Below, in pieces: positions 1 to 13,584 of a DNA stretch of 32,000 nucleotides (positions are counted from its first letter, which is position 1; each line of letters opens with the position of its first letter). Origin of the DNA: Cuniculiplasma divulgatum (GTDB lineage Archaea; Thermoplasmatota; Thermoplasmata; Thermoplasmatales; Thermoplasmataceae). Below the pieces are notes generated by a model. That model did not search any database. It was given only the letters and a program-made list of their open reading frames with translations, and was not told the origin of the DNA. The stretch covers positions 1,170,001 through 1,202,000 of the forward strand of contig NZ_LT671858.1 of the NCBI RefSeq assembly GCF_900083515.1, given 5' to 3'. The position numbers were made by a program, and so were the translations under genes.

Positions 1-233
1 AGTTCAGGAGGGCTGCGTCGAATGTTGAAAAAATTCTTGATCAGAGCAACTCCTCAATGAAAAATATAGTTAGAGTAGTTGTTTATATGAAAAATCAGGG
101 AGACTTTGAACTTATGAACAAACTGTTCAAGGAAGTTTTTTCAATTGCTACACCTGCAAGAACAACCGTTGTTTGCAACTTTCCTAATGATAAAGCCTTA
201 ATAGAACTTGAGGTTACGGCTGTCACACAATGA
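1..233 (+). CDS. RidA/YjgF/UK114-family protein, C-terminal fragment (5' end outside window)
   Basis: The frame starting at nt 3 is open from the window edge to TGA 231-233. Its translation ...NIVRVVVYMKNQGDFELMNKLFKEVFSIATPARTTVVCNFPNDKALIELEVTAVTQ* matches the C-terminal pattern of the YjgF/RidA family (PAR[ST]xV..LP.dalvEIe). It is missing from the ORF track because it has no in-window start. Confidence 0.7.
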   Translation, partial: FRRAASNVEKILDQSNSSMKNIVRVVVYMKNQGDFELMNKLFKEVFSIATPARTTVVCNFPNDKALIELEVTAVTQ

Positions 234-306
234 TTTTTATATATATTTATACATTTACATAATTTATTTTCAATGCTAGAATATAACACACTTTATTTTA
301 GAGGGG

Positions 307-315
307 TTTATAAAA
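307..315 (+). promoter_or_regulatory. TATA-box-like element upstream of gdhA
   Basis: TTTATAAAA lies about 55-65 nt upstream of ATG 371. GGTGA at 362-366 is a Shine-Dalgarno-like site in the implied short leader. Confidence 0.3.
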
Positions 316-370
316 TGCTATAACCTTTAAAAGCTCTTTGTAATACAGTATGTACCGAGAAGGTGAATAC

Positions 371-1621
371 ATGGCAGAAGATTTAGATTCTTTTGATATT
401 GCTGTACAGCAATTAGAAAAGGCGGCGAAAGTTATGAACCTCGACAAAGAGGCTCTGGAAATTTTGAGGGCACCCCAGCAGATTTTGGAGGTTAGTTTAC
501 CAGTAAGAATGGATAATGGAAAAGTAAAAACTTTCAGAGGATTCAGAGTTCATTATAATAATGCAAGAGGTCCCGTTAAGGGAGGTATAAGATTCCATCC
601 AGAAGAAACACTTTCCACTGTAAAGGCACTCTCAGCATGGATGACATGGAAGACGGCGGTAGTTGATATACCAATGGGAGGAGCAAAGGGGGGAATAATA
701 TGCAACCCAAAGGAAATGAGTCCTTCTGAGCTGGAGAGACTTAGCAGAGCTTATGTTAGGGCCATTGCAGATTTCATTGGACCTGAAATTGATGTTCCTG
801 CACCGGACGTTTACACAACACCCCAGATAATGGCCTGGATGATGGATGAATATGAAACTATAGTTAGAAGATCTGCTCCTGGTGTAATAACGGGAAAGCC
901 ACTGACACTAGGTGGCTCACAGGGAAGAGGAGATGCAACAGCCAAAGGAGGAATGTATGTTCTTAAGGTTGGAGCTAAAAAGAAAGGTATAGATCTCTCA
1001 AAGGCAACGGTTGCTGTTCAGGGATTCGGTAATGCCGGTCAATTTGCAATGACCCTTGTAAAAGAACACTTCGGATCAAAGGTAGTTGCAATATCTGACA
1101 CTAAGGGAGGTATCTATTCAGAAAAAGGACTCGACTTTGATGCAGTTTTAAAGCACAAGCAGAAAACTGGCACAGTACAGGGTCTTGAGGGAACAAAAAA
1201 TATAACCAACGAAGAACTTCTAGAACTTGGCGTAGACGTACTTATTCCAGCCGCAATTGAGAATCAGATAACCTCAAAGAATGCAGATAAAATTAAGGCC
1301 AAGATCATTCTCGAACTTGCGAATGGTCCAACAACACCTGAGGCTGATGAGATACTCTTTAAGAGAGGCGTTCTTGATCTGCCAGACTTCCTTGCCAACG
1401 CAGGAGGAGTTACAACATCGTACTTCGAATGGGTACAGAACATCGGAGGATATTACTGGACAAGAGAAGAGGTATACGAAAAGTTGGACAAGAAAATGAC
1501 CACTGCTGCTGAAGATGTGCTTGCAACTGCTGACAAGTACAAGGTTAATCCAAGAACCGGAGCCTATATAATATCAGTGAAGAGAGTTGCAGACGCCATG
1601 AAGGCTAGAGGATGGTACTGA
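371..1621 (+). CDS. gdhA: Glutamate dehydrogenase (hexameric Glu/Leu/Phe/Val dehydrogenase family)
   Basis: The track ORF is 350..1621. It carries KGGIRFHP, the GGAKGG catalytic-Lys region and the GFGNAG dinucleotide-binding loop. I prefer ATG 371 (MAEDLDSF...), which is preceded by GGTGA, over ATG 350. Confidence 0.93.
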
Positions 1622-1805
1622 ACCACCCCCTTTTATTTTCATAGTTCATTTTAAAAATTAAAAACCAAAATATTTCTTTTGTAAAATGATTACAAATTTC
1701 TTTTTTTAAAATATTAAAATAGCGTTATTCAGTTTTTACTTTCGTTCCCTTAAACTTTAGTAGAATCTGAGTTAATATGTTTCATTGAGGGAAGCAATAC
1801 TACGT

Positions 1806-2777
1806 TTATGGAACAAGAACTTCTCTTCCCTTTACTTTGCCCTGTTTCAGATTGTTTAGCACTTCATTTGCAGAACTTAATTTGGACTTATGAACCATTG
1901 AAATTAAACCTTCAGATGAGGCTATGTCGAGGATCGCCCTTGTCTCCTTTCTTAGTCCGCTGGCCACACTTGTTATATTTTTCTCCCACATGAAACTGCT
2001 GAATGGAATCTCTATTTTATCCATTACTGCAGGTACTACTATTGTTTTTCCACTTTTAACAGATGAGGCCGCAGTTTGAACAATTTTGCTATTTGGTGCA
2101 AAAACAATTGCTCCGTCATAGTGACCTGATGGCCTGTCAGTTATTTCAGCAGCTTCGGCTTTTTCTGCAACATCCTTATGAGAAGTTGTTATTGCGCAGG
2201 CTTTTCCACCCATTAACCTGATCAGTTGAAGACCATAGAATCCTAATCCACCAATCCCGAATACTGCTATTCTGTCATTTGGAGCAATATTCAATCTCCT
2301 TACTGCCGAATATGCCGTGATACCTGCACAAAATAGTGGTGCAGTTTCTACACTGTTCAAATTATCTGGAATCCTGCTTACATATGTTGAGTCTAGGGCA
2401 ACGTATTCAGAATAGCCTCCCTTGTGATTTATTCCTGTTACGGTTGCATATGGACATAAGTTCTCCTTTCCCGATATGCAATACTCACATTTCCCACATG
2501 CAGAATAAAACCAGCCTATTCCAACTCTCTCACCTATCTGAATATCACTTTTTGATTCAACAACTTCCCCTACTATTTCATGGCCAGGAATTAGAGGAAA
2601 TAGTTCTGGAGGAAGAGGAAAGTCCCCCTCAATAATATGGAGATCACTGTGACAGACACCATTTGCCTGAACCTTTACAATTACCTGACCATGCTTTAAT
2701 TCTGGCCCTTCATAATCTTCATACTTCAGAGGATTGTTTTCTATCTTGTTCTGTTTTTCCAGGATCATTGCTTTCAT
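1806..2777 (-). CDS. adh: Zn-dependent medium-chain alcohol dehydrogenase
   Basis: I trimmed track ORF 1806..3200 to ATG 2775-2777 (MKAMILEK...). Motifs are GVCHSDLH, PGHEIVGE, the structural-zinc Cys4 CGKCEYCISGKENLC and the GIGGLG Rossmann loop. The upstream 141 codons of the track ORF read antisense through tRNA-Gly and are artefactual. Confidence 0.88.
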   Translation of the reverse strand: MKAMILEKQNKIENNPLKYEDYEGPELKHGQVIVKVQANGVCHSDLHIIEGDFPLPPELFPLIPGHEIVGEVVESKSDIQIGERVGIGWFYSACGKCEYCISGKENLCPYATVTGINHKGGYSEYVALDSTYVSRIPDNLNSVETAPLFCAGITAYSAVRRLNIAPNDRIAVFGIGGLGFYGLQLIRLMGGKACAITTSHKDVAEKAEAAEITDRPSGHYDGAIVFAPNSKIVQTAASSVKSGKTIVVPAVMDKIEIPFSSFMWEKNITSVASGLRKETRAILDIASSEGLISMVHKSKLSSANEVLNNLKQGKVKGREVLVP

Positions 2778-2871
2778 AATAAAAATAATTACAATCTTCC
2801 CTAAAGCATTTTGCCCATTGTACTGTACCACCAAATTTCTTTTATAACCATTTGCAATACCAGCGTTAGCA

Positions 2872-2943
2872 GCGGGAATAGTGTAGTGGTTATCACAGGG
2901 GCTTCCCAAGCCCTTAACCCGGGTTCGAATCCCGGTTTCCGCA
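2872..2943 (+). tRNA. tRNA-Gly (anticodon CCC)
   Basis: A hand-folded 72-nt cloverleaf. Acceptor GCGGGAA/TTTCCGC, anticodon stem GGGGC/GCCCT, loop TTCCCAA (anticodon CCC), T arm CCGGG-TTCGAAT-CCCGG, discriminator A. No CCA is encoded. Confidence 0.93.
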
Positions 2944-2946
2944 TAT
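2933..2946 (+). repeat. attL core (CGGTTTCCGCATAT)
   Basis: It comprises the last 11 nt of tRNA-Gly plus 3 nt downstream and is identical to 13571-13584. Confidence 0.75.
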
Positions 2947-2953
2947 GTATAAA

Positions 2954-2965
2954 AGTTCAATGCGT
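2954..2965. repeat. Element-internal 12-bp arm repeat (AGTTCAATGCGT), inverted partner of 13545-13556
   Basis: Its reverse complement, ACGCATTGAACT, occurs exactly at 13545-13556. This copy lies 7 nt inside attL. Confidence 0.55.
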
Positions 2966-3144
2966 ATAATGGGAAGAAGGCAATTATACTATGTTTGTTT
3001 ATATACTCTAACATGACTTTTTGAGATATATTAATTACAGAATAAAAATAATGATAATCTATTGTAAACACTTTGATCTTTGCGAGATAGCTTATAGGTC
3101 TTTTTCCAATGATATAATATTTTAGGATCCATTCACAGTAAAGA

Positions 3145-4278
3145 TCAGAATTTACTATATTTTTCCCTATATTCCTTTGACATTGTGAACAAGCCTTCAA
3201 AACTTTCCTTGAACTTATTTAAAGCCTGTTCAAATAGTGAATGTATGAAAGAGTATTCCAATTCATTTCTTGAAATAAGGTACGATGTTAAAAGTGGGAT
3301 CTTGTGTTCTTGCCAGAACCATTCTGTCAGCAATAAGAAATATCCAACGAATACGGAGTGGAATCCTACCGAATTAACAACAGAGCTCCTATACTTTTCA
3401 TCCATCAGTTTATTCCTGCTTATGTTATGAAATCCCATCTCTTTTCCTTTATTTTTAGAACTTCTGCGAGAGTTATTCAAAGCTGCCTCTTCATCAATCA
3501 GGTTTTTATCAATTTCTTCAATATATATCTTAAACAAGATTTCATCACTATAGACATGACTTAACCGATCTAATCCTTCCTTTGATATTTTGGGCATTGT
3601 TTTTTCTCCTATAGTCCGATGAAGCAGCAATGTAGAATCCACTGCATTAAATCCATATACCCCATTAACATAAAATGAACTAAGCAGTGCAAACCTATCT
3701 AACTGCTTGAGAGTTGCATCGGGATCCACATTTATGAAGATAATTCTAAACAAAATTCGAGTCATTTCTGAGTAGGAAAGAGAGGATCCTTTTCCTTTAA
3801 ATTTTTCCAGCACTGTTTTCAGGCCATCAAATAAAGTTATTTCATCGCCCTTGAGTTTCAGGATGAAATTAGATACGCCAGGTTCCTTCATAGTGCTTGA
3901 TCCCATTGGTTCTGTTCCATACTTTTTCCTGAGATCATCCATACCAGAATTATCAGTATCATCTCTTGAGAGGTAATTCCTTATGATATCCTTATGTATG
4001 GCTAATTCTAAGCTTAAGATAAGTTCCTCATTAGTTTTTGGAAGATTGAAATCGCTTATTCCTATATCAGTTAAGAATTCTCCAACCAGATTTTTACCAT
4101 GATTTTCCCAGTTTCCAAGAATTTCTAAGTAAGAGTGAAGAACGCACGCTTTAAGGATATCACTAAAGTCAAGAACATTGGAGATAGGGATTCCAGAATA
4201 AAGGAGTCCTTGTTGAATGTAGTTTAAAAAAGCATAGTCATTTTTGCTTAGTGATACAGGAACTTTCTTTTCATCCAT
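3145..4278 (-). CDS. Hypothetical protein (377 aa), orphan cargo gene next to attL
   Basis: The track ORF is 3145..4353. I prefer ATG 4278 (MDEKKVPVSLSK...); upstream ATGs at 4353, 4317 and 4302 are possible. I recognise no motif. It is the only sizeable minus-strand gene in the left part of the element. Confidence 0.6.
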   Translation of the reverse strand: MDEKKVPVSLSKNDYAFLNYIQQGLLYSGIPISNVLDFSDILKACVLHSYLEILGNWENHGKNLVGEFLTDIGISDFNLPKTNEELILSLELAIHKDIIRNYLSRDDTDNSGMDDLRKKYGTEPMGSSTMKEPGVSNFILKLKGDEITLFDGLKTVLEKFKGKGSSLSYSEMTRILFRIIFINVDPDATLKQLDRFALLSSFYVNGVYGFNAVDSTLLLHRTIGEKTMPKISKEGLDRLSHVYSDEILFKIYIEEIDKNLIDEEAALNNSRRSSKNKGKEMGFHNISRNKLMDEKYRSSVVNSVGFHSVFVGYFLLLTEWFWQEHKIPLLTSYLISRNELEYSFIHSLFEQALNKFKESFEGLFTMSKEYREKYSKF

Positions 4279-4353
4279 GTTTCGTAAATATAACCTATCC
4301 ATATAAACATATAGCATATGATATTCATAATGTTTATACGTGTGGTTACACAA

Positions 4354-4363
4354 TTATTATATA
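4354..4363 (+). promoter_or_regulatory. TATA-box-like element for the plus-strand operon (leaderless start at 4385)
   Basis: TTATTATATA is centred about 26 nt upstream of ATG 4385. It sits in the 106-nt divergent intergenic region between 4278 and 4385. Confidence 0.3.
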
Positions 4364-4384
4364 GTGCGTGTTTATACATATAGT

Positions 4385-4537
4385 ATGGCACAGCTTGATA
4401 TTTATATCAAACCAAAGGACAAAGTAAAACTGACCAGGAAGGCAAACAAATTTAATGTGTCCATTTCCAAGCTAATGGTTACGGCAGCACTCATGTGTGA
4501 TAAGGAAGTAATGGAGGAAATAAAGCATGGCCAGTGA
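4385..4537 (+). CDS. Small ribbon-helix-helix (CopG/Arc-like) DNA-binding protein, 50 aa
   Basis: MAQLDIYIKPKDKVKLTRKANKFNVSISKLMVTAAL... has an N-terminal beta-strand followed by two helices, which is the RHH pattern. It is the first gene of the operon. The track ORF 4340..4537 was trimmed to ATG 4385. Confidence 0.55.
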   Translation: MAQLDIYIKPKDKVKLTRKANKFNVSISKLMVTAALMCDKEVMEEIKHGQ

Positions 4538-4709
4538 TTACCAATATTCCGATCCAAGGCTTTTATTTGAACTGTGGCGGGAATTAACCGGCGAAGACCT
4601 TTTAAGTGATATAACAGAGAGTAAAGAACCTCAAGGAAAATCAGTTGAGGGGGATAAAAAGGAAATAAGGGCAAGTCAGAAAGAAACCCAAAAAAGGAGG
4701 ATAAAATGA
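4527..4709 (+). CDS. Hypothetical small protein, 60 aa, basic and acidic C-terminal tail
   Basis: A track ORF whose start overlaps the previous stop by 11 nt. No motif recognised. Confidence 0.45.
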   Translation: MASDYQYSDPRLLFELWRELTGEDLLSDITESKEPQGKSVEGDKKEIRASQKETQKRRIK

Positions 4710-4710
4710 G

Positions 4711-4854
4711 ATGAATAAAAAGATATTTGGAGGGGTACCAGCCCCTACAAAAAAAGTAAGCAAGTTATATAACCAATCTAAGTTAATTAAGGTTTCTTTT
4801 AAAGAGATTTACCAGTCAGGCAATGGACAAATTACGATTTTTGAGGTGTTTTGA
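4711..4854 (+). CDS. Possible small ORF, 47 aa (below the track cutoff)
   Basis: ATG 4711 lies 1 nt after the previous stop, and its TGA at 4852-4854 lies 1 nt before ATG 4856 of the Rep gene. Translation: MNKKIFGGVPAPTKKVSKLYNQSKLIKVSFKEIYQSGNGQITIFEVF. Only the tight packing supports it. Confidence 0.3.
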   Translation: MNKKIFGGVPAPTKKVSKLYNQSKLIKVSFKEIYQSGNGQITIFEVF

Positions 4855-4855
4855 A

Positions 4856-7393
4856 ATGAGAACTAAAATAGAGGCTAACGGCAATGGAATCATGAGTGGA
4901 GATGTGATTTATATAAATAAGAGGAATTCAAATATAACCTCTGTTGATAAGAAGAAATATTCGGAATTATTAGAACGATTTGTTAAAGGAACCAGACCTA
5001 TCACAGAGGAGAACTTTTTAAACATAACTGTAGGTTACTCTATGATTGTGGGTTTTCTTATAGAACAGATTCGCAAGAGTCCAGAATTATGGGACAGCAG
5101 AAAGGAACCTGAGGAACTGCGAGAACTTAAAAGTAGATATCTTAAAGTATGGAAAATTAAAAAAGGGCTGATGCTACCTGAAATAGAAAAAAACAATATT
5201 ATTTTAATTGAAGATTCTGATTCCCTTTACTTTCCTGGTCCAAATCACATTGCAGATTCCATAATGCGTAAGCATACATGCAAGACAACCTATACTGATG
5301 ATGACGACAGGGAAAAACTTTGGTTTTTCAATGGAGAAATATACACAAGAGGAGAGGCATTAATAAAACAGGAAGCGCACAACGAATATATGCGTCAATG
5401 GAAAGCGATGCACGAAGAGGCCAAGAAAAAACAGAGCAAGGCATTATCAGAGAGATTGAGAGAGCTGTTACATAGAGGGCCCAGAGCAAACGATATCAAT
5501 GAAGTAATCGCAATGATCAAGAGGGTAACATTTACAAAAGAGGAGATGAACCCTGGGTCTCACATCCCATTCAAAGGCAAGGGGCTCTTGAATTTGAAAT
5601 CATGGAAGTGGGAAGAATTCAATGATGAATACTTTTTCACATACATGATAAATGCCACTCCAGTTGATCGGTATGTTACCTTGAAAGATGTCCCACTGTT
5701 TGGGAATTTACTCAGAACGGCATACTACTATTCTGATATCCCAACGATCCTAAGCTATGCTGCCTATACCTTTAATCCGAGATTACCTGCTGAAAAAGTG
5801 TTATTCATAGTGGGAACCCCAAGAATAGGTAAAGGAACAACGGTCAAAGTTTTAGAGGGTCTCCAGCCTCAGGGAACAGCTCCATTCTCAATGAAAACAA
5901 TTCTAACTGCTGATCGATTCATGTTTTCAGGTTTAGAAGGAAAAAATCTAATTACCGACAGCGAAGCCACCCGAACCTTCAAGAGAGGGATCCCTCTTAA
6001 TTGGGCTAACTTTACCACATTGTTTGGTGGTGATACGTTGCCTAATGAGGAAAAAGGGAAAGAGATGAAAGGGGCCAGAAGCCATGCAAAGGGAATAGTA
6101 TTAGGGAACCTACCACTTATGAAGATAACGGACCCAGCCGCATTATCCCGAATTATTGTTGTTGAAACCAGAAACCAAAAACCCAGGGTAAGGATAGAAA
6201 ATCTCAGCGATAAGATCCTGGAGAGAGAAGGAAACCTGGTTGCCACACTGTTACTTCAGGTTCTTTTCAAACTAATACGCAGGAAATGGATTTTCCCAGG
6301 AGAGTTGTCAGAAGATGCAATTTCTCAACTGATGGATCACCTGGCTAATCCGGTTGAATATTTTATTGAGGAGAAAATTGAGGAAGACAGCAATAGTAAG
6401 ATCAGAGAAGATGAACTTTTAGAGGCATTTGAAGATTTCTGCGATGAGAACAGTGTTCCTAAAATTTCAAAGAACCTGTTCACTAGAACATTTGCAAAAA
6501 GTTTTCAAAGGAAAAAACAGGGGACAAGAGCAAATCGAGTGAATTACTACTTTGAATGCAAGTTAGCCCTCTCAGATAAAGAATTAAAGATCGATACTGA
6601 GGAAAAAGTGGGACACGGGCTTAATTACACAGAAAGCCAGAATTTAAGGGATTCTGGAGAGAGATATAGGCGTGTCCATCTTTTGTCCCCTATCTTGTAC
6701 ATGCGGGAGAGAGAGGACACACGTAAAAAGGAAAAGGCACAAAAGTTAGACACGTACTTTTCAACCCTTAAAACCAATGAAATAAAGGGTTTCGAGGATA
6801 AGAAAAGCGTGTCCAACTTTTTTCATGAAAAAGAGTCATCACCTGAGACAAGTGAAACTAAACCTTCCAAATCTTTAGCGAATGACGGTATTCAGGATGA
6901 TAGTGAGAAAGTTAAAGATCAATCCTACCAAATTGAAGAAACTATACTTAACCTTCTAAAGCAGATTACAAGGAACGATAAGAGCATGAGAGTGGAACCA
7001 TCTATTATTTTGAGTAGTTTAGCTCTGAATGGGATTTATCAACCTATCACACTTAAAGAGATGAATGAACGCATTTTACCTACCATGGCAGAGTTAGGCA
7101 TGATTTCCATGAGTAATGGCAAAATCGCTCTTACTGGAAAGAAATTAAAGGAACCTAATAACCCGGAAGAAAATGAGAAAATCGAATATGTCCTAATATC
7201 TGCCCTGGAAGATCTTCCCGCTTTTGCATGGAAGGACAGAGATTATTACGTTCACCAAGGGGACATCTGCCACATGCCTAAGGAAGTAGTAAACACACTG
7301 ATAAGGCAAAACAGGAAAATACGGATAATTGAGGAGAATGGACAGATAAATGATCCTGCCGAAGTATCTGTTTTGAAAAGGGGTGGCCAGTGA
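4856..7393 (+). CDS. Replication protein: D5_N-like region plus P4/D5-family SF3 helicase, with a long C-terminal extension
   Basis: The track ORF is 4823..7393, with an alternative start at ATG 4856 (MRTK...). Walker A is VGTPRIGKGTT and Walker-B-like is GKNLITDSE. Motif C is GGDTLPNEEKGKEMKGARSHAKGIVLGNLPL, as in the P4-family primase C-terminal domain. Upstream, REKLWFFNGEIYTRGE resembles D5_N. Confidence 0.82.
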   Translation: MRTKIEANGNGIMSGDVIYINKRNSNITSVDKKKYSELLERFVKGTRPITEENFLNITVGYSMIVGFLIEQIRKSPELWDSRKEPEELRELKSRYLKVWKIKKGLMLPEIEKNNIILIEDSDSLYFPGPNHIADSIMRKHTCKTTYTDDDDREKLWFFNGEIYTRGEALIKQEAHNEYMRQWKAMHEEAKKKQSKALSERLRELLHRGPRANDINEVIAMIKRVTFTKEEMNPGSHIPFKGKGLLNLKSWKWEEFNDEYFFTYMINATPVDRYVTLKDVPLFGNLLRTAYYYSDIPTILSYAAYTFNPRLPAEKVLFIVGTPRIGKGTTVKVLEGLQPQGTAPFSMKTILTADRFMFSGLEGKNLITDSEATRTFKRGIPLNWANFTTLFGGDTLPNEEKGKEMKGARSHAKGIVLGNLPLMKITDPAALSRIIVVETRNQKPRVRIENLSDKILEREGNLVATLLLQVLFKLIRRKWIFPGELSEDAISQLMDHLANPVEYFIEEKIEEDSNSKIREDELLEAFEDFCDENSVPKISKNLFTRTFAKSFQRKKQGTRANRVNYYFECKLALSDKELKIDTEEKVGHGLNYTESQNLRDSGERYRRVHLLSPILYMREREDTRKKEKAQKLDTYFSTLKTNEIKGFEDKKSVSNFFHEKESSPETSETKPSKSLANDGIQDDSEKVKDQSYQIEETILNLLKQITRNDKSMRVEPSIILSSLALNGIYQPITLKEMNERILPTMAELGMISMSNGKIALTGKKLKEPNNPEENEKIEYVLISALEDLPAFAWKDRDYYVHQGDICHMPKEVVNTLIRQNRKIRIIEENGQINDPAEVSVLKRGGQ

Positions 7394-7674
7394 TGATCCT
7401 TCCAGTATATCTGAAAGGTCTTGAAGGATCAACAGTAAGTGTGAATTACCTAGGACCCAAAAACGCACCCTATACCCTGACTGGTGAATTTCAAAGGAGA
7501 TCCTTTAACAAAATCATTATTGACGGGTTGAAGTCAGGAAGAACCCATAGAATACCACTTGATAAGGTGATATCTATAGCTGAGCTTGACTCAGATTTTA
7601 AGATCCTAAAATTTTTACAGGATGGCACAGGGGCGGCCTTATGCTCCAAAGAGGAAGTGATAGAGAATGAATGA
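7390..7674 (+). CDS. Hypothetical protein, 94 aa (possible Sm/SH3-like small beta-barrel)
   Basis: An ATGA start/stop overlap with Rep. LKGLEGSTVSVNYLG...YTLTGEFQRRSFNKIIIDG...RIPLDKVISIAEL loosely follows an Sm-like pattern. The fold call is weak. Confidence 0.5.
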   Translation: MMILPVYLKGLEGSTVSVNYLGPKNAPYTLTGEFQRRSFNKIIIDGLKSGRTHRIPLDKVISIAELDSDFKILKFLQDGTGAALCSKEEVIENE

Positions 7675-7984
7675 ACAAAGTATGGAGAATTTGCAGAAAG
7701 CAATCGATGGCATACTTCATCCTTGGGGATGGAAGCTGGAAGCAAAAAAAGGAAAAGATGAGGTTATAGTGGTTGAATACAACATGGAGAATCTGAATAA
7801 GACTCTATTCTCAGGAGCCGTATTCCGTTTAGTGCTGTATGAGTTTGAGATACGGCATTTTTCTTTACTGTCAGTCAAAACTAAGGGTCAATCTCTTTTC
7901 CTGGTATTCGATGAACAACGAAAGGACTCAGGGGGAATAGCAGCTGAAACAAAGAATCCCACAGGCAGAGGTGCGTTAAATTGA
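7667..7984 (+). CDS. Hypothetical protein, 105 aa
   Basis: A track ORF that overlaps the previous gene by 8 nt, in the same operon. Confidence 0.5.
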   Translation: MNEQSMENLQKAIDGILHPWGWKLEAKKGKDEVIVVEYNMENLNKTLFSGAVFRLVLYEFEIRHFSLLSVKTKGQSLFLVFDEQRKDSGGIAAETKNPTGRGALN

Positions 7985-7986
7985 AA

Positions 7987-8103
7987 ATGAGCAATAACGG
8001 AATAGAAACAATAAGAAGGATCCTGGATAATAGGATCACTTACTATTTTGTCAAGGTCCTTGTGTGGGCTGGAAACAAAATATTGAAGGATGGGGTGGAT
8101 TAA
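7987..8103 (+). CDS. Possible small ORF, 38 aa
   Basis: ATG 7987 lies 2 nt after the previous stop, and its TAA at 8101-8103 abuts ATG 8104. Translation: MSNNGIETIRRILDNRITYYFVKVLVWAGNKILKDGVD. Supported by packing only. Confidence 0.25.
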   Translation: MSNNGIETIRRILDNRITYYFVKVLVWAGNKILKDGVD

Positions 8104-8277
8104 ATGAAACCCTTTCAGTTAACAACAAAAGGAACAACCAGGAGAAAATTAGAGAAATTTGCCAATGCCCATCCTGAAGGATTCTATCTGAATTATAGCA
8201 CAGTCATAGACGATCTTCTCAGTGGAAAAGTAAAGAGGAGAATAAAGTTAAAAAGCAATAAAAAGGCGGTAAGATGA
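8104..8277 (+). CDS. Possible small RHH-like protein, 57 aa
   Basis: MKPFQLTTKGTTRRKLEKFANAHPEGFYLNYSTVIDDLLSGKVKRRIKLKSNKKAVR has a beta-strand plus two-helix pattern and a basic tail. It abuts its neighbours with no gap. Confidence 0.4.
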   Translation: MKPFQLTTKGTTRRKLEKFANAHPEGFYLNYSTVIDDLLSGKVKRRIKLKSNKKAVR

Positions 8278-8405
8278 GTGTGGAAAGAGTAAAGCAGAAT
8301 ACCCTCAGGAAGTTAGGGAGCCTTCTTCCTGAAGGCGTAAGGATAAGGCTCATTGTCATTGGGAGATCCGGAATAATAACGGTGGTTGTAAATGAAGCCG
8401 AATAA
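8274..8405 (+). CDS. Possible small ORF, 43 aa
   Basis: An ATGA overlap with the previous ORF. Translation: MSVERVKQNTLRKLGSLLPEGVRIRLIVIGRSGIITVVVNEAE. Confidence 0.25.
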   Translation: MSVERVKQNTLRKLGSLLPEGVRIRLIVIGRSGIITVVVNEAE

Positions 8406-8862
8406 TGATAAAATGCATAGGCTCTCATACTTCCATGGGGAAGGGGAATATAATTATACCAAAGAACATCAAACAACTCTGACAATACCTACAAACAGAC
8501 AAACATCAGGCAAAGAATCACTATCTAAAGATCTTCTCTCAATCAAAACCATGTCATACTGCTCCAGGTATAATTCATGTGAAGCTCCCATATGTCCTCT
8601 TGATATCCTTGTAAAAAAAAGAACATACGCTGAAGGAGATCCTGAGTGTGGAATGGCAAGGGCTACAAGGCATAGATACTGGGAGAATATGCCCGAAGAA
8701 CTCAAAAAGGAGCTGCCATACCAGGGATATTTCCAGGGAGAGTTTACAAGGTTAAAGGCAGCCAGGGAAAGATGGGAATCCTTAAGTGAAGGAGAAAAAC
8801 AGGGAGTTTTAGATCGATTGAAGGATATCAGGAACTCTAAAAAGGGAGATGGTCCACGATGA
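8392..8862 (+). CDS. Hypothetical Cys-containing protein, 156 aa
   Basis: A track ORF containing CSRYNSCEAPICPLD...ECG, a possible metal-binding cluster. Later starts are possible. The antisense ORF 8219..8485 is judged spurious. Confidence 0.5.
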   Translation: MKPNNDKMHRLSYFHGEGEYNYTKEHQTTLTIPTNRQTSGKESLSKDLLSIKTMSYCSRYNSCEAPICPLDILVKKRTYAEGDPECGMARATRHRYWENMPEELKKELPYQGYFQGEFTRLKAARERWESLSEGEKQGVLDRLKDIRNSKKGDGPR

Positions 8863-9035
8863 ACATAATTCTATTTTCCCCGCTTCTTCCGGAAAGAAAG
8901 CTTCCTGGTATTCCCTGGGATGATGAACCTGAACCAGATATTCCATTCATACCTGAGGATCCTGGAGATGTCCCCAAAGATCCAGATGAGGAACCAGATG
9001 AAGAAAATAACAATAGGATCGGTGTTGCCCGATGA
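8859..9035 (+). CDS. Possible small acidic, proline-rich protein, 58 aa
   Basis: ATGA overlaps at both ends (8859-8862 and 9032-9035). Translation: MNIILFSPLLPERKLPGIPWDDEPEPDIPFIPEDPGDVPKDPDEEPDEENNNRIGVAR. The two antisense track ORFs here are low-complexity mirror images. Confidence 0.35.
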   Translation: MNIILFSPLLPERKLPGIPWDDEPEPDIPFIPEDPGDVPKDPDEEPDEENNNRIGVAR

Positions 9036-9310
9036 TTTCCCACATGCCTGCAAAACATGTCCAGGCAACACTCGACCAGTTTATTTCTAAACCATTAACC
9101 AGTAAGATGGAAAGGTTCATAAAACTATGTGAATTCTATAAGGCCAATACTGGCAAAGAACCCGATTGTCCACACAGTGTGTATAACTTTGTCCAGGACA
9201 ACAAGCTTCCAGGAGATGTAAAACAATTTAAATTCTTTACACTCAGGAGCATAGCAGCCTATTACGGAAAATGGGAAAATATCTCAGGGGATGGGAAACA
9301 TGAAAGGTAA
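9032..9310 (+). CDS. Hypothetical protein, 92 aa
   Basis: A track ORF with an ATGA overlap to the upstream ORF. Confidence 0.5.
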   Translation: MISHMPAKHVQATLDQFISKPLTSKMERFIKLCEFYKANTGKEPDCPHSVYNFVQDNKLPGDVKQFKFFTLRSIAAYYGKWENISGDGKHER

Positions 9311-9354
9311 CTATTCCCATTTTAATTTTTTAAACACATCAACAAATTTGAGGA

Positions 9355-9627
9355 TTGATAACCATTTCTGATCCTGGAAAATTCACAGTGAGGATCAGGC
9401 TCGATGAAATCAACAGGAAGATCTTGGAGATCTTTATTAAATATCCTAACAGGAAATTCAAGACAGGCCAGATAAGAACCATACTTGCTTTTGAGGGTTT
9501 GGAGCTTGGTTATGGCGTAATCACCTTAAGGCTTACCAATCTATCACTTCTCCATATACTTACAGCTGAAATGGGATCCAGTGTAAAGACATACTGGCTG
9601 ACCGAAGATTTTAAAATTAACCCCTGA
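9355..9627 (+). CDS. Small winged-helix DNA-binding protein, 90 aa (TTG start)
   Basis: INRKILEIFIKYPNRKFKTGQIRTILAFEGLELGYGVITLRLTNLSLLHIL...KTYWLTE fits an ArsR/MarR-like wHTH pattern. TTG 9355 is preceded by GAGG. It is the last gene of the operon. Confidence 0.5.
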   Translation: MITISDPGKFTVRIRLDEINRKILEIFIKYPNRKFKTGQIRTILAFEGLELGYGVITLRLTNLSLLHILTAEMGSSVKTYWLTEDFKINP

Positions 9628-9675
9628 TCAATCTGAATGGGATGGGTATATACCCCCCCTCAGCTCGATTGATCA
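9625..9675. repeat. Nested inverted repeat at the operon 3' end (terminator or protein-binding site)
   Basis: TGATCAATC (9625-9633) pairs perfectly with GATTGATCA (9667-9675). The 33-nt spacer contains the perfect 12-nt palindrome GGGTATATACCC (9644-9655). The outer stem includes the stop codon of the wHTH gene. Confidence 0.5.
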
Positions 9676-10098
9676 AGGGAAAGACAAAAACGAAGGCTGA
9701 CATGATGCCCCCATATCCATGTTATCCACAGGGAATTAAGGACAATCCGGCATTTCCTTAATAATCTAACTAAATTTGCAGCTGCTTATTTTTTCTTTCC
9801 TGGTTAATGCTTCCTGATCCAATGCAGTTATGCTGCATACTGTAGGCCTAAGCCTTTTTCTTCCTGGTATTCAGTAAGAGAAGGTAGCCTATAGCAAGGA
9901 TTACTGGGAAGAATACCAGATCGAATTCATACCATGCCATATCTTTCAATATCCTATGGACTAACACATTCTAAAAGGTATGTATTCTGCCATTTCCTTG
10001 AGGCAAATCATGATAAAAATACAGTCCATAAAAACATTAAAATGCCTTAAAATTCCTGAAAAAGAAACGTTCTTATCGTTAAGTGCGGGTCAGGAATT

Positions 10099-10305
10099 AT
10101 GGCAATAGATCCATTGAAAAAATCCTACAGGAATGGAAGGAAAGATCAGCTTGAAGTTGATTCCTCAATTCTGAGGGATGCGGACGAGGTATGCGATACC
10201 AGGGAAGAGCTTGTAGAATATATCAAGGCCAGGCTTGGTATAATCTCTGAACAGCTTACAGTCGAGAATGTGAGAGAGATCAAGGATATACACAACCTTT
10301 TGTAA
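10099..10305 (+). CDS. Hypothetical protein, 68 aa, isolated in the ORF-poor region
   Basis: A track ORF that is acidic and predicted helical, with no motif. Confidence 0.35.
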   Translation: MAIDPLKKSYRNGRKDQLEVDSSILRDADEVCDTREELVEYIKARLGIISEQLTVENVREIKDIHNLL

Positions 10306-10360
10306 TCTTCCATTCTCTATTTTTTTATCCGGCCTAATTGGGTAAACTCATTTTCATTTT

Positions 10361-10376
10361 TGTTACTACAGTAACA
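10361..10376. repeat. Palindrome copy 1: TGTTACTACAGTAACA
   Basis: A 16-nt near-palindrome with one central mismatch pair. Together with its flanks (TTTGTTACT.CAGTAACA..AATT) it matches copy 2 at 11339-11354. Confidence 0.55.
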
Positions 10377-10516
10377 TAATTGAGTTATGGTCCTGATAGA
10401 ACACAGATGGACTACAGAAAGGAATACAGAATCAAACCCGCAGTTCAGCGTATTTTACCAGAAACCTATAGCCACTGACATGTTACCTATATGTAAAACA
10501 TGGCCTGACATCTCAT

Positions 10517-10622
10517 TGTAAAATTGCAATGGCATTACATCGTTATAGAAACAGTATTTTAAAGGGATAATACAGTAAACGGTCATGCAGTGATGTTGTC
10601 ATCTATTATTACATAGTCATGA
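10517..10622 (+). repeat. Direct repeat unit A (~106 nt)
   Basis: It aligns by hand with 10942-11048, with 42 of the first 50 positions identical. The core ATCGTTATAGAA[A/G]CAGTATTTTAAAG is shared with one mismatch. Confidence 0.6.
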
Positions 10623-10941
10623 GCTTCATCGATATCTATCGAAAGAACACCGAAAGCCTCATCGAAAGAAAACCAGTAAATTCCACTACTTTTATCGAGA
10701 GCCTATGACAAGAGATATATTAACTACATATAAAACAGTCCAGGATAAACGAGAATGCCATGGGCTACTCACATGCCGTAGCGGTTAAAACCTTGTCTTA
10801 CAATGAGAAATCACATAGGCAGCATGTGGTAGTATTTGATATCCCGTTATCCATTGCATAAGAATCAGGCCTAATACAGGGATCGATTGTTGACTGATTG
10901 AATCCATGAGTTCTCAGGATGACTGGGAATGTCATGTGAAA

Positions 10942-11048
10942 TGTAATATTACATTGGCATGTGATCGTTATAGAAGCAGTATTTTAAAGAGAAATAAGGT
11001 AAAATGTCATGTGGTGGCGGCGGCATTCCTATTATTATATACACATGA
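10942..11048 (+). repeat. Direct repeat unit B (~107 nt)
   Basis: A paralogue of 10517-10622. It starts with the perfect palindrome TGTAATATTACA inside a longer imperfect hairpin (CATG..AATGTAAT/ATTACATT..CATG) and contains a locally GC-rich GGTGGCGGCGGC. Confidence 0.6.
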
Positions 11049-11338
11049 ATCAGAAGGCGGATGTAAACCTCAGGTCAAATTCTCATGCCAGATCTGAGAT
11101 CTTTCAAAATGATACCTAATGGTTTATTCTAAGGTATGTTTAGTTTAACATCCTTTACCTTTTATCAAGGCTGTGGTAATGGGGACTATTGTCTTAATGA
11201 TATTATACCATGCCTTGCCAGTGAGATATGAGAACCTATGATAACTAACATGTTTTATTAAATTAAGACTACTTTAAGGTATAGCTCTATTATAAGAATT
11301 GATCCTCATCGACATGGCCATGAAGGATCCTTAAAATT

Positions 11339-11354
11339 TGTTACTGCAGTAACA
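11339..11354. repeat. Palindrome copy 2: TGTTACTGCAGTAACA (perfect)
   Basis: A perfect 16-nt palindrome. It is preceded at 11301-11330 by a second inverted repeat (GATCCT...CATGGCCATG...AGGATC). Confidence 0.55.
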
Positions 11355-11508
11355 AGAATTAGAATGGGATCTTCATTACTATCTTACCAGATGGTAGAGT
11401 TGTAAAAACTTCAAAGTTGTTGCTCTAATTTTCATAGAATTGCGATTATACAAATTTAACCTTATTAAGAGCGCAAGCATTATTATATCTATTTAATTAT
11501 CTGATATC

Positions 11509-11751
11509 ATGGAAAATGTAACTCTTCCAGATGACGCGGTTAACTCTTTTAAGAAATTTAGGCGCAATTACGAAGCATCTAATAGGATGTATAACGAGTT
11601 AAAGGAACATGTAGGGAAATATGTCGTAATCGATAACGGAAATGTTATAGGATTCACAGACACTTATCAAGAGGCTACAGAAAAATTTGGGAAGATAGAC
11701 GGAGTGTTTATAGAGTTAGTTACTGACAAAAACATTTTTTGGATCCTGTAA
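11509..11751 (+). CDS. Small DUF5678-like protein, 80 aa
   Basis: The N-terminal helix (FKKFRRNYEASNRMYNELKEHVGKY) followed by VVIDNGNVIGFTDTYQEATEKFGK...VFIELV matches my recollection of the DUF5678 pattern (..GKWVAI.dgkVi..gds.eEa..ka). The family assignment is from memory and has not been searched. Confidence 0.6.
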   Translation: MENVTLPDDAVNSFKKFRRNYEASNRMYNELKEHVGKYVVIDNGNVIGFTDTYQEATEKFGKIDGVFIELVTDKNIFWIL

Positions 11752-11768
11752 TTGTCGGTGAAATCACC

Positions 11769-12272
11769 ATGGCAATTATAGATTTAATATTTGACGAAAA
11801 GAGAAACTTGTTTTCAATTCCTGTTATCTTAGTAAAGAAACCTGTTCGTGGAATTGGAAATATCCCAGATAAGTCCTCTAAGCTAGAGTGGTGTAATGCA
11901 CTTATGTATGTGGATACGGGTTCTAACTTGACATCTATTACTGAAATCGAGGTTGATAAATTAAACCTAAATAGGGGAGCTTTTAAGAATCAGAGAGTAG
12001 GAGGCATAGGAGGTTTTATGGAAACTCCCACCACTAATGAAGTAACTATTACGATTATGAGCGGGGATTCTATGATTGATATAAACCTTGATAAAATCGC
12101 TGCACATCCATCACAATTAAAAAGGAAGATTCAGAAGAAGCAAGGCGTGTATGTGCAAAAAGGAGAAGAAAAGTTGGAAATGATATGCCTCTTTGGTTTA
12201 GATGCACTTGAAAAACTTGGAGGTAAGTTAGAGTTAGATGTAAGAAATAAATCAGGAAAGATAATCATTTAG
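11769..12272 (+). CDS. Retropepsin-like (clan AA) aspartic protease, soluble, ~167 aa
   Basis: The track ORF is 11739..12272 with a TTG start that overlaps the upstream stop; ATG 11769 is the alternative. The active site is ALMYVDTGSNLTSI, RVGGIGGF is flap-like (compare GGIGGF of HIV-1 protease), and the C-terminal region is ICLFGLDALEKLG. There is one DTG per chain and no signal peptide or TM segment. Confidence 0.75.
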   Translation: MAIIDLIFDEKRNLFSIPVILVKKPVRGIGNIPDKSSKLEWCNALMYVDTGSNLTSITEIEVDKLNLNRGAFKNQRVGGIGGFMETPTTNEVTITIMSGDSMIDINLDKIAAHPSQLKRKIQKKQGVYVQKGEEKLEMICLFGLDALEKLGGKLELDVRNKSGKIII

Positions 12273-13506
12273 AACTGTCCTGTGCTTTCTTATCTTTCAG
12301 AGCCATTTGAATAATGGTTGTAAGTATTCCGGTCCTCTCACTCTCGGGCATATTGTCAATTAATGCCTTTATCTTCTCATCTATTAATCCCTCGTTGGCC
12401 AGCTCCTTCTCGATATGCTCCTCTTTCTCTTTAATTTTAAGAGTTGCCTCGATTGTTAAAGGTAACCAGCACTTACGACAGTAAACTGCATTTGAAGGGT
12501 TCAGAGTGCTGCACCTTGGACATTCTCTGGGAGAAATGTCCTTTACTACGTTATCTTCTTCCGGTTTGATCCCGTACGCTTTTAGTATGGCCATATCCTG
12601 ATCCTTTGCTGACAGATGGACATAGGTTCTTGTTTGCCTTGATCCATGAATCCATCCCATTTGTGATTCAAGGGGTGCCTCTGCTACCCTTGAAGCCAAG
12701 ATGGAAGCCCTTGTATGCCTGAATAGATGAGGATGTATTCTCCTGGTTATCCCAGCTCTCCTCTTTGCTCTGTTGAGGGCTCTGGCCATTTCAGGATAGT
12801 TCATGGGTTCACTGTATGCCTGGGCGGAAGTGCTTACAAAAACCATAGAATCGGGATTGTTAGCCTTAGGATGCTGCTGAACCCACTCTCTAAGATATGG
12901 TACAGAATCCCCAACTATTCTAACCATCCTCTCTCCAGTCTTTCCTGAAACATGAAGGACTGTTCCCCATTGATCATTTTGAAGATCCCTAATCCTTAAG
13001 GTTAAGATCTCTCCAACCCTGCAGCCTGAATCATACAGAAGTGAAAATAATGCTTTATCCCTTACACTAATGCAATTCTCAATCAGTTTATGCATTTCAT
13101 CTACTGAAACCATCTCCTCTGATTTCTTCAACCTGTTTACTGAATTTCCCCTTACCTTGATCCACTGTACTCTTTTTTGAAACTCTCTATCTGAGAGCTT
13201 CCACTTATAATATTTCCTTATGGCCTGTTTATAATCTTCTACTGTTCTCGGGCTTATGTTCGCCTTAGACTGAAGATTAACTATTGCTGATTTAAGATCT
13301 TCCATTGAAGGATTGAGAAAAACATCCGGCATCATTTTACTGAGGACTCTTAACCTGATCAAGTAAAAGATGATTCTATGATCAGTAAGGCCTTCCTGAA
13401 TCTTCAAATCTGTGGCAAATGACTTTAGAGAATCTGTAATGGGCTTTATTCCTATGAGCCTTTCATTCCTTTCAAGTTCTTGTTCAACTGTATCCTTGTA
13501 AATCAT
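12265..13506 (-). CDS. int: Tyrosine recombinase/integrase with a C-terminal zinc-ribbon extension, 413 aa
   Basis: Catalytic set: R in LYDSGCRVGEI, K in VSGKTGER, HxxR in HLFRHTRAS, then WIHGS and the nucleophile Y in RTYVHLS. A ~115-aa tail follows, with CPRC-x12-CRKC and a charged helical end. It lies next to attR, and the gene is intact, not split by integration. Confidence 0.88.
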   Translation of the reverse strand: MIYKDTVEQELERNERLIGIKPITDSLKSFATDLKIQEGLTDHRIIFYLIRLRVLSKMMPDVFLNPSMEDLKSAIVNLQSKANISPRTVEDYKQAIRKYYKWKLSDREFQKRVQWIKVRGNSVNRLKKSEEMVSVDEMHKLIENCISVRDKALFSLLYDSGCRVGEILTLRIRDLQNDQWGTVLHVSGKTGERMVRIVGDSVPYLREWVQQHPKANNPDSMVFVSTSAQAYSEPMNYPEMARALNRAKRRAGITRRIHPHLFRHTRASILASRVAEAPLESQMGWIHGSRQTRTYVHLSAKDQDMAILKAYGIKPEEDNVVKDISPRECPRCSTLNPSNAVYCRKCWLPLTIEATLKIKEKEEHIEKELANEGLIDEKIKALIDNMPESERTGILTTIIQMALKDKKAQDSSK

Positions 13507-13544
13507 CTTAATTGTATGTTCTGATAGCTTATAATTTTAATGAC

Positions 13545-13556
13545 ACGCATTGAACT
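13545..13556. repeat. Element-internal 12-bp arm repeat (ACGCATTGAACT), inverted partner of 2954-2965
   Basis: A perfect inverted match lying 14 nt inside attR. In a circularised element the two copies would bracket the att core. Confidence 0.55.
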
Positions 13557-13570
13557 ATTTAGTAAATGCT

Positions 13571-13584
13571 CGGTTTCCGCATAT
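13571..13584 (+). repeat. attR core (CGGTTTCCGCATAT)
   Basis: A perfect copy of 2933-2946, about 65 nt beyond the integrase start codon at 13506. Confidence 0.75.

Follow-up and report, generated by a model that had tools for sequence, protein, structure and literature searches.

A retropepsin-like protease and its DUF5678 partner: a possible toxin-antitoxin-like cassette in an integrated element of Cuniculiplasma divulgatum

The archaeon Cuniculiplasma divulgatum carries, in the 32,000-nucleotide stretch of contig NZ_LT671858.1 analysed here (the window; forward-strand positions 1,170,001 to 1,202,000 of assembly GCF_900083515.1, renumbered from 1 throughout), a two-gene cassette that encodes a small protein of the DUF5678 family and, directly behind it, a predicted cytoplasmic protein with a retropepsin-like (clan AA) aspartic protease fold. 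The two genes occur together in every protease lineage whose gene context was read, the small partner ends at a fixed leucine, and only the protease gene has been lost alone. Our results lead us to favour, tentatively, a toxin-antitoxin (TA)-like cassette in which the DUF5678 protein would restrain the protease. Several other explanations have to be weighed against this one.

When 1.84 billion representatives were searched exhaustively with a family profile, the protease proved to belong to a small family of 56 clusters, whose complete members are 150-175 residues long and in no case fused to another domain. A DUF5678 gene lies directly 5' of the protease gene, on the same strand and at a distance of 1-17 nucleotides, in all 14 protease lineages read, and among these loci we never found a protease without an intact partner. 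The arrangement persists where the protease has 22-27% and the partner 23-35% identity to the pair of the window; the adjacency is far beyond chance. An earlier annotation of this DNA, made by a model from the letters and their open reading frames (the sequence-only reading), had mentioned DUF5678 genes next to aspartic protease genes in other archaea and had proposed a survey of the adjacency. For the present family this adjacency holds across distant archaeal lineages, and the two genes are co-conserved in all lineages read. A scan of GTDB representative genomes with the protease alignment gave four loci, all from Thermoplasmata, and metagenomes searched with the partner alignment yielded one. 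More distant members lie on contigs of 30-65% G+C, some of them with archaeal neighbours such as fibrillarin and DUF973. Scans of IMG/VR with the protease and partner alignments returned no relatives, and neither protein was matched on plasmids; among phages the protease was unmatched and the partner hit only GepA at E=0.8, which is not significant. At one locus (L033, positions 523-2048) an IS605-type TnpB gene is inserted directly 5' of the DUF5678 gene; the pair is intact there, and the insertion has stretched the public call of the DUF5678 gene to 112 residues.

The small protein matches PF18929 with E=1.2e-11 and 44.6 bits, against a gathering cut-off of 23.2, which bears out its earlier assignment to DUF5678. 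The identical C. divulgatum entry, WP_148689871.1, has the NCBI name 'DUF5678 domain-containing protein', and the protease gene is publicly annotated as 'hypothetical protein'. Partners from distant loci score 23.1-38.9 bits. Beyond residue 74, the last position matched by PF18929, the partner continues into a tail of the form (F/L/I)-W-(I/V)-L-COOH, and all partners read stop exactly at the leucine. Most lineages have FWIL, LWIL, LWVL or IWIL, and the two most distant have MFIL and EML; in the partner alignment (A3) W78 and L80 are invariant and I79 is nearly so. The position of the tail outside the Pfam DUF5678 model, which is the sole basis for the proposal, suggests that it is a subfamily-specific determinant tied to the protease. 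Comparison of the partner with PDB chains gave chance-level matches only, the best being MLKL at E=0.025. Two other accounts of this end of the protein were considered and rejected. The HbYX-type proteasome-docking motif has a penultimate aromatic residue, and the aromatic residue of the tail is antepenultimate. A gag-pro-like -1 frameshift fusion at the T-run at 11733-11739 was set aside because the frame relation and spacing of the two genes vary, because the T-run is absent in distant pairs and because no fused protein occurs among the 56 clusters.

Loss within the cassette is one-sided. On three independent occasions the protease gene was broken or lost, and each time the partner is intact. 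In loci L025-27, which come from three independent assemblies, the protease gene has a frameshift in the variable loop, and in L031 it has a 61-nucleotide deletion. The third case concerns L028 and L029 (CP133596.1), where a clean recombination break lies 10 nucleotides into the protease open reading frame and the protease is absent at both loci. Here a block of 478 nucleotides, 100% identical to positions 11301-11778 of the window, spans the putative promoter, the complete partner gene and the initial 10 nucleotides of the protease gene. The reverse loss, a protease kept with its partner gone, was not found among the loci read. The element around L028 and L029 is larger than, and different from, that of the window; its two copies lie about 1.3 Mb apart in CP133596.1, and its cargo includes a DnaA-like AAA+ protein, an anti-restriction-like protein, IS200/605 TnpA and TnpB, and a 210-residue integrase.

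The cassette also moves between genetic backgrounds. Related Thermoplasmatales elements likewise end in a module made up of the partner, the protease and a convergent integrase. In L031 (positions 1-12000), which occupies the same chromosomal site in another population, a type I restriction-modification system (HsdR, HsdM/S) and a D12 methyltransferase replace the primase gene found in the window, and the end module is 97-99% identical in nucleotide sequence. In L019 an integrase 83% identical to that of the window accompanies a pair with no more than 56-68% identity, and in L011 the relation is reversed, with 50% for the integrase and 70-85% for the pair. The integrase is reduced to fragments in L001-4 and L016-18, where the pair is intact and under purifying selection, and in L025-27 the pair lies in a region rich in PIN and MazE genes. 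The cassette recombines independently of the integrase, and it behaves as a selfish or mobile unit tied to no single element or integrase lineage.

The assignment of the second protein to the retropepsin-like (clan AA) fold is solid, and profile and model comparisons agree with the earlier proposal of clan AA membership. The retropepsin signatures that the sequence-only reading had pointed out are all in place: YVDTGS, with the catalytic D49 at 11913-11915, a GGIGGF flap at 12000-12017 and, as the C-terminal hhGxDxL motif (h, hydrophobic), LFGLDAL at 12189-12209. In a 46-member alignment D49, G79 and G143 do not vary, D145 hardly does, and conservation at G51 and S52 is 90% or more. Even members with 22-27% identity to the window protease retain D-[TS]-G-S, the Gly-rich flap and G-L-D. 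The window protease alone misses the cut-offs of the clan AA families considered (PF13650, PF13975 and PF00077), scoring 17.4 bits to PF13975 and PF13650 against 24.3 and 28.2. Hence, of the profile checks proposed earlier, that with PF18929 succeeded for the partner, and the other three fell short for the protease itself. No NCBIfam model, which would include the clan AA models TIGR03698 and TIGR02281, matches it at E≤1. However, 10 of 11 close relatives match PF13975 or PF13650 (best E=7.5e-6), and three relatives (P0008, P0065 and P0064) have precomputed matches to PF13650 or PF13975. We therefore regard the proteins as a divergent family inside clan AA that, by the curated thresholds, lies outside the existing Pfam families.

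Further comparisons point the same way. A profile of the family, searched against PDB sequences, gave retropepsin-type matches only, to the proteases of equine infectious anaemia virus (EIAV; 3e-5) and human immunodeficiency virus type 1 (HIV-1), to Rickettsia ApRick (5e-4) and to DDI2 (7e-4), and hhalign aligned the segment from DTGS through GGIGGF with HIV-1 protease. The AlphaFold2 model built from the 46-sequence alignment has a predicted local distance difference test score (pLDDT) of 92.7 and a predicted template modelling score of 0.84, and contains a hairpin (E73-79/E82-89, the flap) and a helix at 144-150; only 11 close sequences as input had given a pLDDT of 46, and the larger alignment was used instead. 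In a Foldseek comparison of this model with the PDB, the 50 best matches listed were all retropepsins, those of simian, human and feline immunodeficiency viruses (SIV, HIV and FIV), Rous sarcoma virus and Rickettsia (APRc), with target-normalised TM-scores of about 0.5-0.67, and in BFVD the named matches were nearly all retropepsin-type proteases. The conserved catalytic motifs argue for a catalytically competent enzyme and, by analogy with retropepsins, the protease should act as a homodimer to which each chain contributes one catalytic Asp. In alignment A2 the C-terminus of most proteases from outside the Thermoplasmatales subgroup is a conserved h-E-W-COOH (IEW or LEW, for instance). This end recalls the Phe that terminates HIV protease, at the dimer interface, a strand that the h-W-I-L-COOH end of the partner could mimic.

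The organisation of the two genes was largely as anticipated. Both open reading frames are present as the sequence-only reading had described them, together with its two candidate starts for the protease, TTG 11739, which overlaps the small gene, and ATG 11769, which leaves a gap of 17 nucleotides. Since all homologues start at the ATG column (M1 is nearly invariant), we place the start at 11769. The AT-rich region seen upstream of the pair contains a TATA-like box (Table 1), and the block AATTA(A/T)TATAT is kept at an equal distance in six Thermoplasmatales loci, the remaining upstream sequence being unalignable. The box implies that the cassette has a promoter of its own and that its transcript would have little or no leader; the promoter region showed no palindrome conserved across related loci. 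Neither protein has a transmembrane-like segment (the highest Kyte-Doolittle mean over 19 residues is 1.07), in agreement with what had been claimed for the protease. The isoelectric point (pI) of the partner is 4.6-5.3 in 7 of 10 pairs and that of the protease 7.7-9.2. Both genes are under purifying selection, with ratios of nonsynonymous to synonymous substitution (dN/dS) of 0.05-0.24, and of 0.06-0.11 for the small gene. The convergence of the protease gene on the integrase gene, with an 8-nucleotide overlap of 3' ends, had also been remarked upon. The overlap is real but a conserved coupling is not, as the corresponding ends are separated by 145-297 nucleotides in relatives; we therefore consider the overlap to be a local accident, with no functional coupling of protease and integrase.

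Strict co-inheritance, a free C-terminus locked in position and one-sided loss together indicate that the two proteins work together, and the same three patterns suggest that, of the two, it is the protease that must not occur unaccompanied. The cassette shares with type II TA modules a small first gene, co-orientation, tight spacing, gene sizes, the split into an acidic and a basic protein, and a patchy distribution linked to mobile elements. The pattern of loss is also that of a TA module, as the protease gene was lost alone three times and the partner gene, in the loci read, never. The sequence-only reading had put forward three functions for the pair: a toxin-antitoxin-like or abortive-infection-like system, a protease that cleaves a repressor of the element, and a maturation protease. 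The comparative data favour the first, because of the protease-only losses, the persistence in decayed elements, the shuffling independent of the integrase and the orphan copy of the partner, and they disfavour the last.

We regard a protease/neutraliser pair organised like a type II TA module, with docking through the tail, as the most parsimonious mechanism. In such a pair the small protein would bind the protease as its dedicated partner and keep it in check by means of the free C-terminal tail. Retropepsins bind extended hydrophobic peptides in their cleft and have a dimer interface built from terminal strands, in which the C-terminal Phe of HIV-1 protease is critical; hence a free hydrophobic C-terminus could block either site. 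The tail may lie in the substrate cleft as a mimic of a product or pseudo-substrate, with its terminal carboxylate near the Asp dyad, or it may mimic the C-terminal strand of the retropepsin dimer interface. A tail of either kind would be nature's counterpart to the product-mimic and dimerisation inhibitors that were designed against HIV protease. If the partner is labile, an arrest of its synthesis, for example after loss of the element or invasion by another element, would free the protease, which might then damage or arrest the cell and so stabilise the element or abort the infection. The full proposition, a TA or abortive-infection cassette with a retropepsin effector, a WIL-COOH tail that inhibits at the cleft or the dimer interface, and orphan inhibitors traded as anti-addiction genes, is, taken as a whole, possible but less likely than not.

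Several observations weigh against a TA-like function. A repressor/anti-repressor pair would predict the same asymmetry of loss. In Thermoplasmatales the pair nearly always adjoins an integrase gene or its remnant (L025-27 are the exception), which fits a role in the regulation of integration and excision equally well. Searches of Pfam and of PDB sequences recognised no DNA-binding family in the partner, whether helix-turn-helix (HTH), ribbon-helix-helix, AbrB or other. No PADLOC-DB model matches either protein at E≤1, and aspartic proteases are absent both from a 2009 census of TA systems (PMC2701414) and from the literature that we searched on retropepsins and TA systems. The protease family is rare, unlike the typical abundant TA families, and no locus read has more than one pair. 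Finally, the gene contexts on which the argument draws are those of 14 of the 56 protease clusters.

The main rival is a switch of the ImmR/ImmA kind, in which the DUF5678 protein would be a regulator of the integrase, of excision or of replication, and the protease would cleave it at or near the tail and so trigger excision or replication. We consider this explanation unlikely, though it accounts for much. Most of the Thermoplasmatales pairs that were read lie directly beside an integrase gene or fragment, whatever the cargo, and the orphan partner of L028/L029 is about 1 kb from an integrase. The order of small gene, protease and integrase mirrors immR-immA-int of ICEBs1, and retention of a regulator whose protease has gone would account for the asymmetric loss as well. 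Cleavage at N-I-F|W-I-L would leave three prime-side residues, which is about the minimum for cleavage by a retropepsin. However, the partner has no DNA-binding signature, and most partners are acidic. The pair is intact and under purifying selection in L001-4, where nothing remains to be regulated, no integrase gene was called on the short contigs of L014 and L022, and the similarities of pair and integrase are decoupled. The protease, moreover, is unrelated to the COG2856 metalloprotease ImmA, and Pfam gave no match to Peptidase_M78/COG2856 or to an HTH in either cassette protein.

It is less likely still that the partner is a helper or a substrate (an activator, adaptor, assembly chaperone or precursor) and that the cassette is ordinary cargo with no selfish or defensive role. 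Strict co-occurrence and tight spacing fit any obligate two-subunit system, and purifying selection acts on both genes. A mere helper, however, should not survive, promoter included, three losses of the protease, and the rare, patchy distribution linked to mobile elements is unlike that of a housekeeping function. We regard as improbable a structural or adaptor complex in which the retropepsin-like protein serves as a non-catalytic binding module. Such a role has been discussed for some DDI1-type domains, and the window protease does fall under the Pfam gathering thresholds; against it, all 46 sequences aligned have the catalytic Asp, and D-[TS]-G-S, the flap and G-L-D withstand divergence down to 22-27% identity. 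It is very improbable that the protease serves in the maturation of a virus-like element, as its retroviral counterparts do, since only the analogy of fold with retroviral proteases speaks for it, the element has no recognised genes for capsids or packaging, IMG/VR and GenBank phages yielded no relatives, and the pair occurs also in decayed elements and beside cellular genes.

The cassette sits at the integrase end of an element of about 10.6 kb (about 2947-13584) that is integrated in a tRNA-Gly gene and flanked by cellular genes (Table 1). The 14-nucleotide repeat that marks its borders occurs in the window only at 2933 and 13571, and none of 2000 shuffles produced a repeat of 14 nucleotides. 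With these borders and a TATA-like box of the pair's own, the earlier description of a self-contained two-gene module carried by a mobile element holds up. The primase-helicase has sub-threshold Pfam matches to DUF5906 and Pox_D5 and is 41% identical to a 731-residue homologue in L005; it shows the surrounding 10.6 kb to be a plasmid-like integrative element. The element also has many small open reading frames without family matches. The stretch at 9630-11500 is poor in open reading frames and contains a direct repeat of 51 nucleotides (10517-10567 and 10942-10992; 84% identical); Rfam gave no match within this stretch, which is a possible origin or regulatory region. Unusually, the integrase is extended at its C-terminus by a zinc ribbon (residues 327-346, sub-threshold DUF7577/DZR matches) and some 65 residues beyond it, and its XerA-like NCBIfam matches are under the cut-off. 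At the left border a listed open reading frame of 464 residues (1806-3200, minus strand) overlaps the tRNA-Gly gene in antisense; as its ADH_N domain begins only at residue 169, this frame, and with it the public call of 421 residues in L030, is probably over-extended at the 5' end.

Table 1. Features of the integrated element and of its protease cassette (positions in the window)
Feature	Position	Strand	Description
tRNA-Gly(CCC)	2872-2943	+	Insertion site of the element
attL, 14-nucleotide direct repeat CGGTTTCCGCATAT	2933-2946	+	3' end of tRNA-Gly(CCC); left border
D5-like primase-helicase	4823-7393	+	856 residues; PHROG DNA primase, E=1.9e-26
TATA-like box ATTATTATAT	11479-11488	+	About 21-30 nucleotides 5' of the small-gene ATG
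Small DUF5678 gene	11509-11751	+	80 residues, acidic, pI 5.0; proposed partner/neutraliser; identical to WP_148689871.1 (exact-sequence look-up)
C-terminal tail N-I-F-W-I-L-COOH of the small protein	11731-11748	+	Proposed protease-docking determinant
GGTGA, Shine-Dalgarno-like motif	11757-11761	+	In the 17-nucleotide intergenic gap, 7 nucleotides 5' of the protease ATG; read from the sequence
Protease gene	11769-12272	+	167 residues, pI 8.8; ATG start, stop 12270-12272; predicted cytoplasmic, retropepsin-like
Tyrosine integrase	12265-13506	-	413 residues; PF00589, E=6.6e-25; converges on the cassette
attR, second copy of the 14-nucleotide repeat	13571-13584	+	65 nucleotides beyond the integrase start codon; right border

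To our knowledge, hardly any soluble retropepsin-like protein of a prokaryote has been characterised, and those prokaryotic members that have been studied, Rickettsia APRc and Pseudomonas Rlo, are membrane-bound or secreted. Our literature search found no paper on the function of DUF5678 and none on an aspartic-protease TA system. As the obligate partner of a protease, DUF5678 gains a first concrete functional context. The family is compact and experimentally tractable and comes with a sharp prediction, namely that the conserved tail is the control element. If the TA-like function is correct, the cassette would add a new enzymatic class to the addiction and defence effectors of mobile elements, and the partner would be a natural protein inhibitor of a retropepsin. 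The analysis also clarifies the structure of the tRNA-inserted integrative elements of acid-mine Thermoplasmatales, in which a partner-protease-integrase module is common to elements with different cargo.

Four groups of known systems offer comparisons. The window protease shares with the proteases of HIV, SIV and EIAV, Rickettsia APRc, the RVP domains of DDI1/DDI2 and Pseudomonas aeruginosa Rlo a single-lobe fold with one D-T/S-G per chain, a Gly-rich flap and a C-terminal h-h-G-x-D helix motif; indeed, the six residues GGIGGF recur unchanged in the HIV-1 flap. Unlike those proteins, it is predicted to be soluble and cytoplasmic, belongs to no polyprotein, has no fused domains and has an obligate small partner gene. 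It also differs from them in its length of about 165 residues, an N-terminal part of 45 residues with a variable loop, a long basic beta-hairpin (about 116-137) and DTGS rather than DTGA.

With type II TA modules such as VapBC, MazEF and RelBE, types that are abundant in Cuniculiplasma (PMC5155288), the cassette has in common a small acidic protein encoded first and a larger basic one second, tight spacing, its own putative promoter, residence on mobile elements, persistence where these decay, an orphan 'antitoxin' copy and loss of the 'toxin' gene only. It differs in that the putative toxin is an aspartic protease and that the partner has no recognised DNA-binding domain. The ImmR/ImmA pair of ICEBs1 (cited in PMC2701414) and other COG2856-Xre pairs likewise have a small gene followed by a protease gene beside an integrase, and there too the protease may act on the product of its neighbour. 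However, the cassette has neither the zinc metalloprotease fold (HEXXH) of ImmA nor the fold of ImmR, a repressor with an Xre-type HTH, and it is convergent with the integrase gene instead of being co-transcribed with it.

Uncharacterised single-domain clan AA proteins of prokaryotes have been described as COG5550 and COG3577 (PMC2642776). Comparable in setting are the Saci_1895-type proteins of Sulfolobales, found at type III CRISPR (clustered regularly interspaced short palindromic repeats) loci (PMC3973734), which are also small, cytoplasmic, archaeal, retropepsin-like and uncharacterised and occur in a context of defence or mobile elements. By their description (PMC3973734) they are set apart from the present proteins, being about 100 residues long and CRISPR-associated, with no DUF5678 partner reported. 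New in comparison with all of these is a retropepsin-like family, itself divergent, whose hallmark is an obligate DUF5678 partner that ends in a conserved tail.

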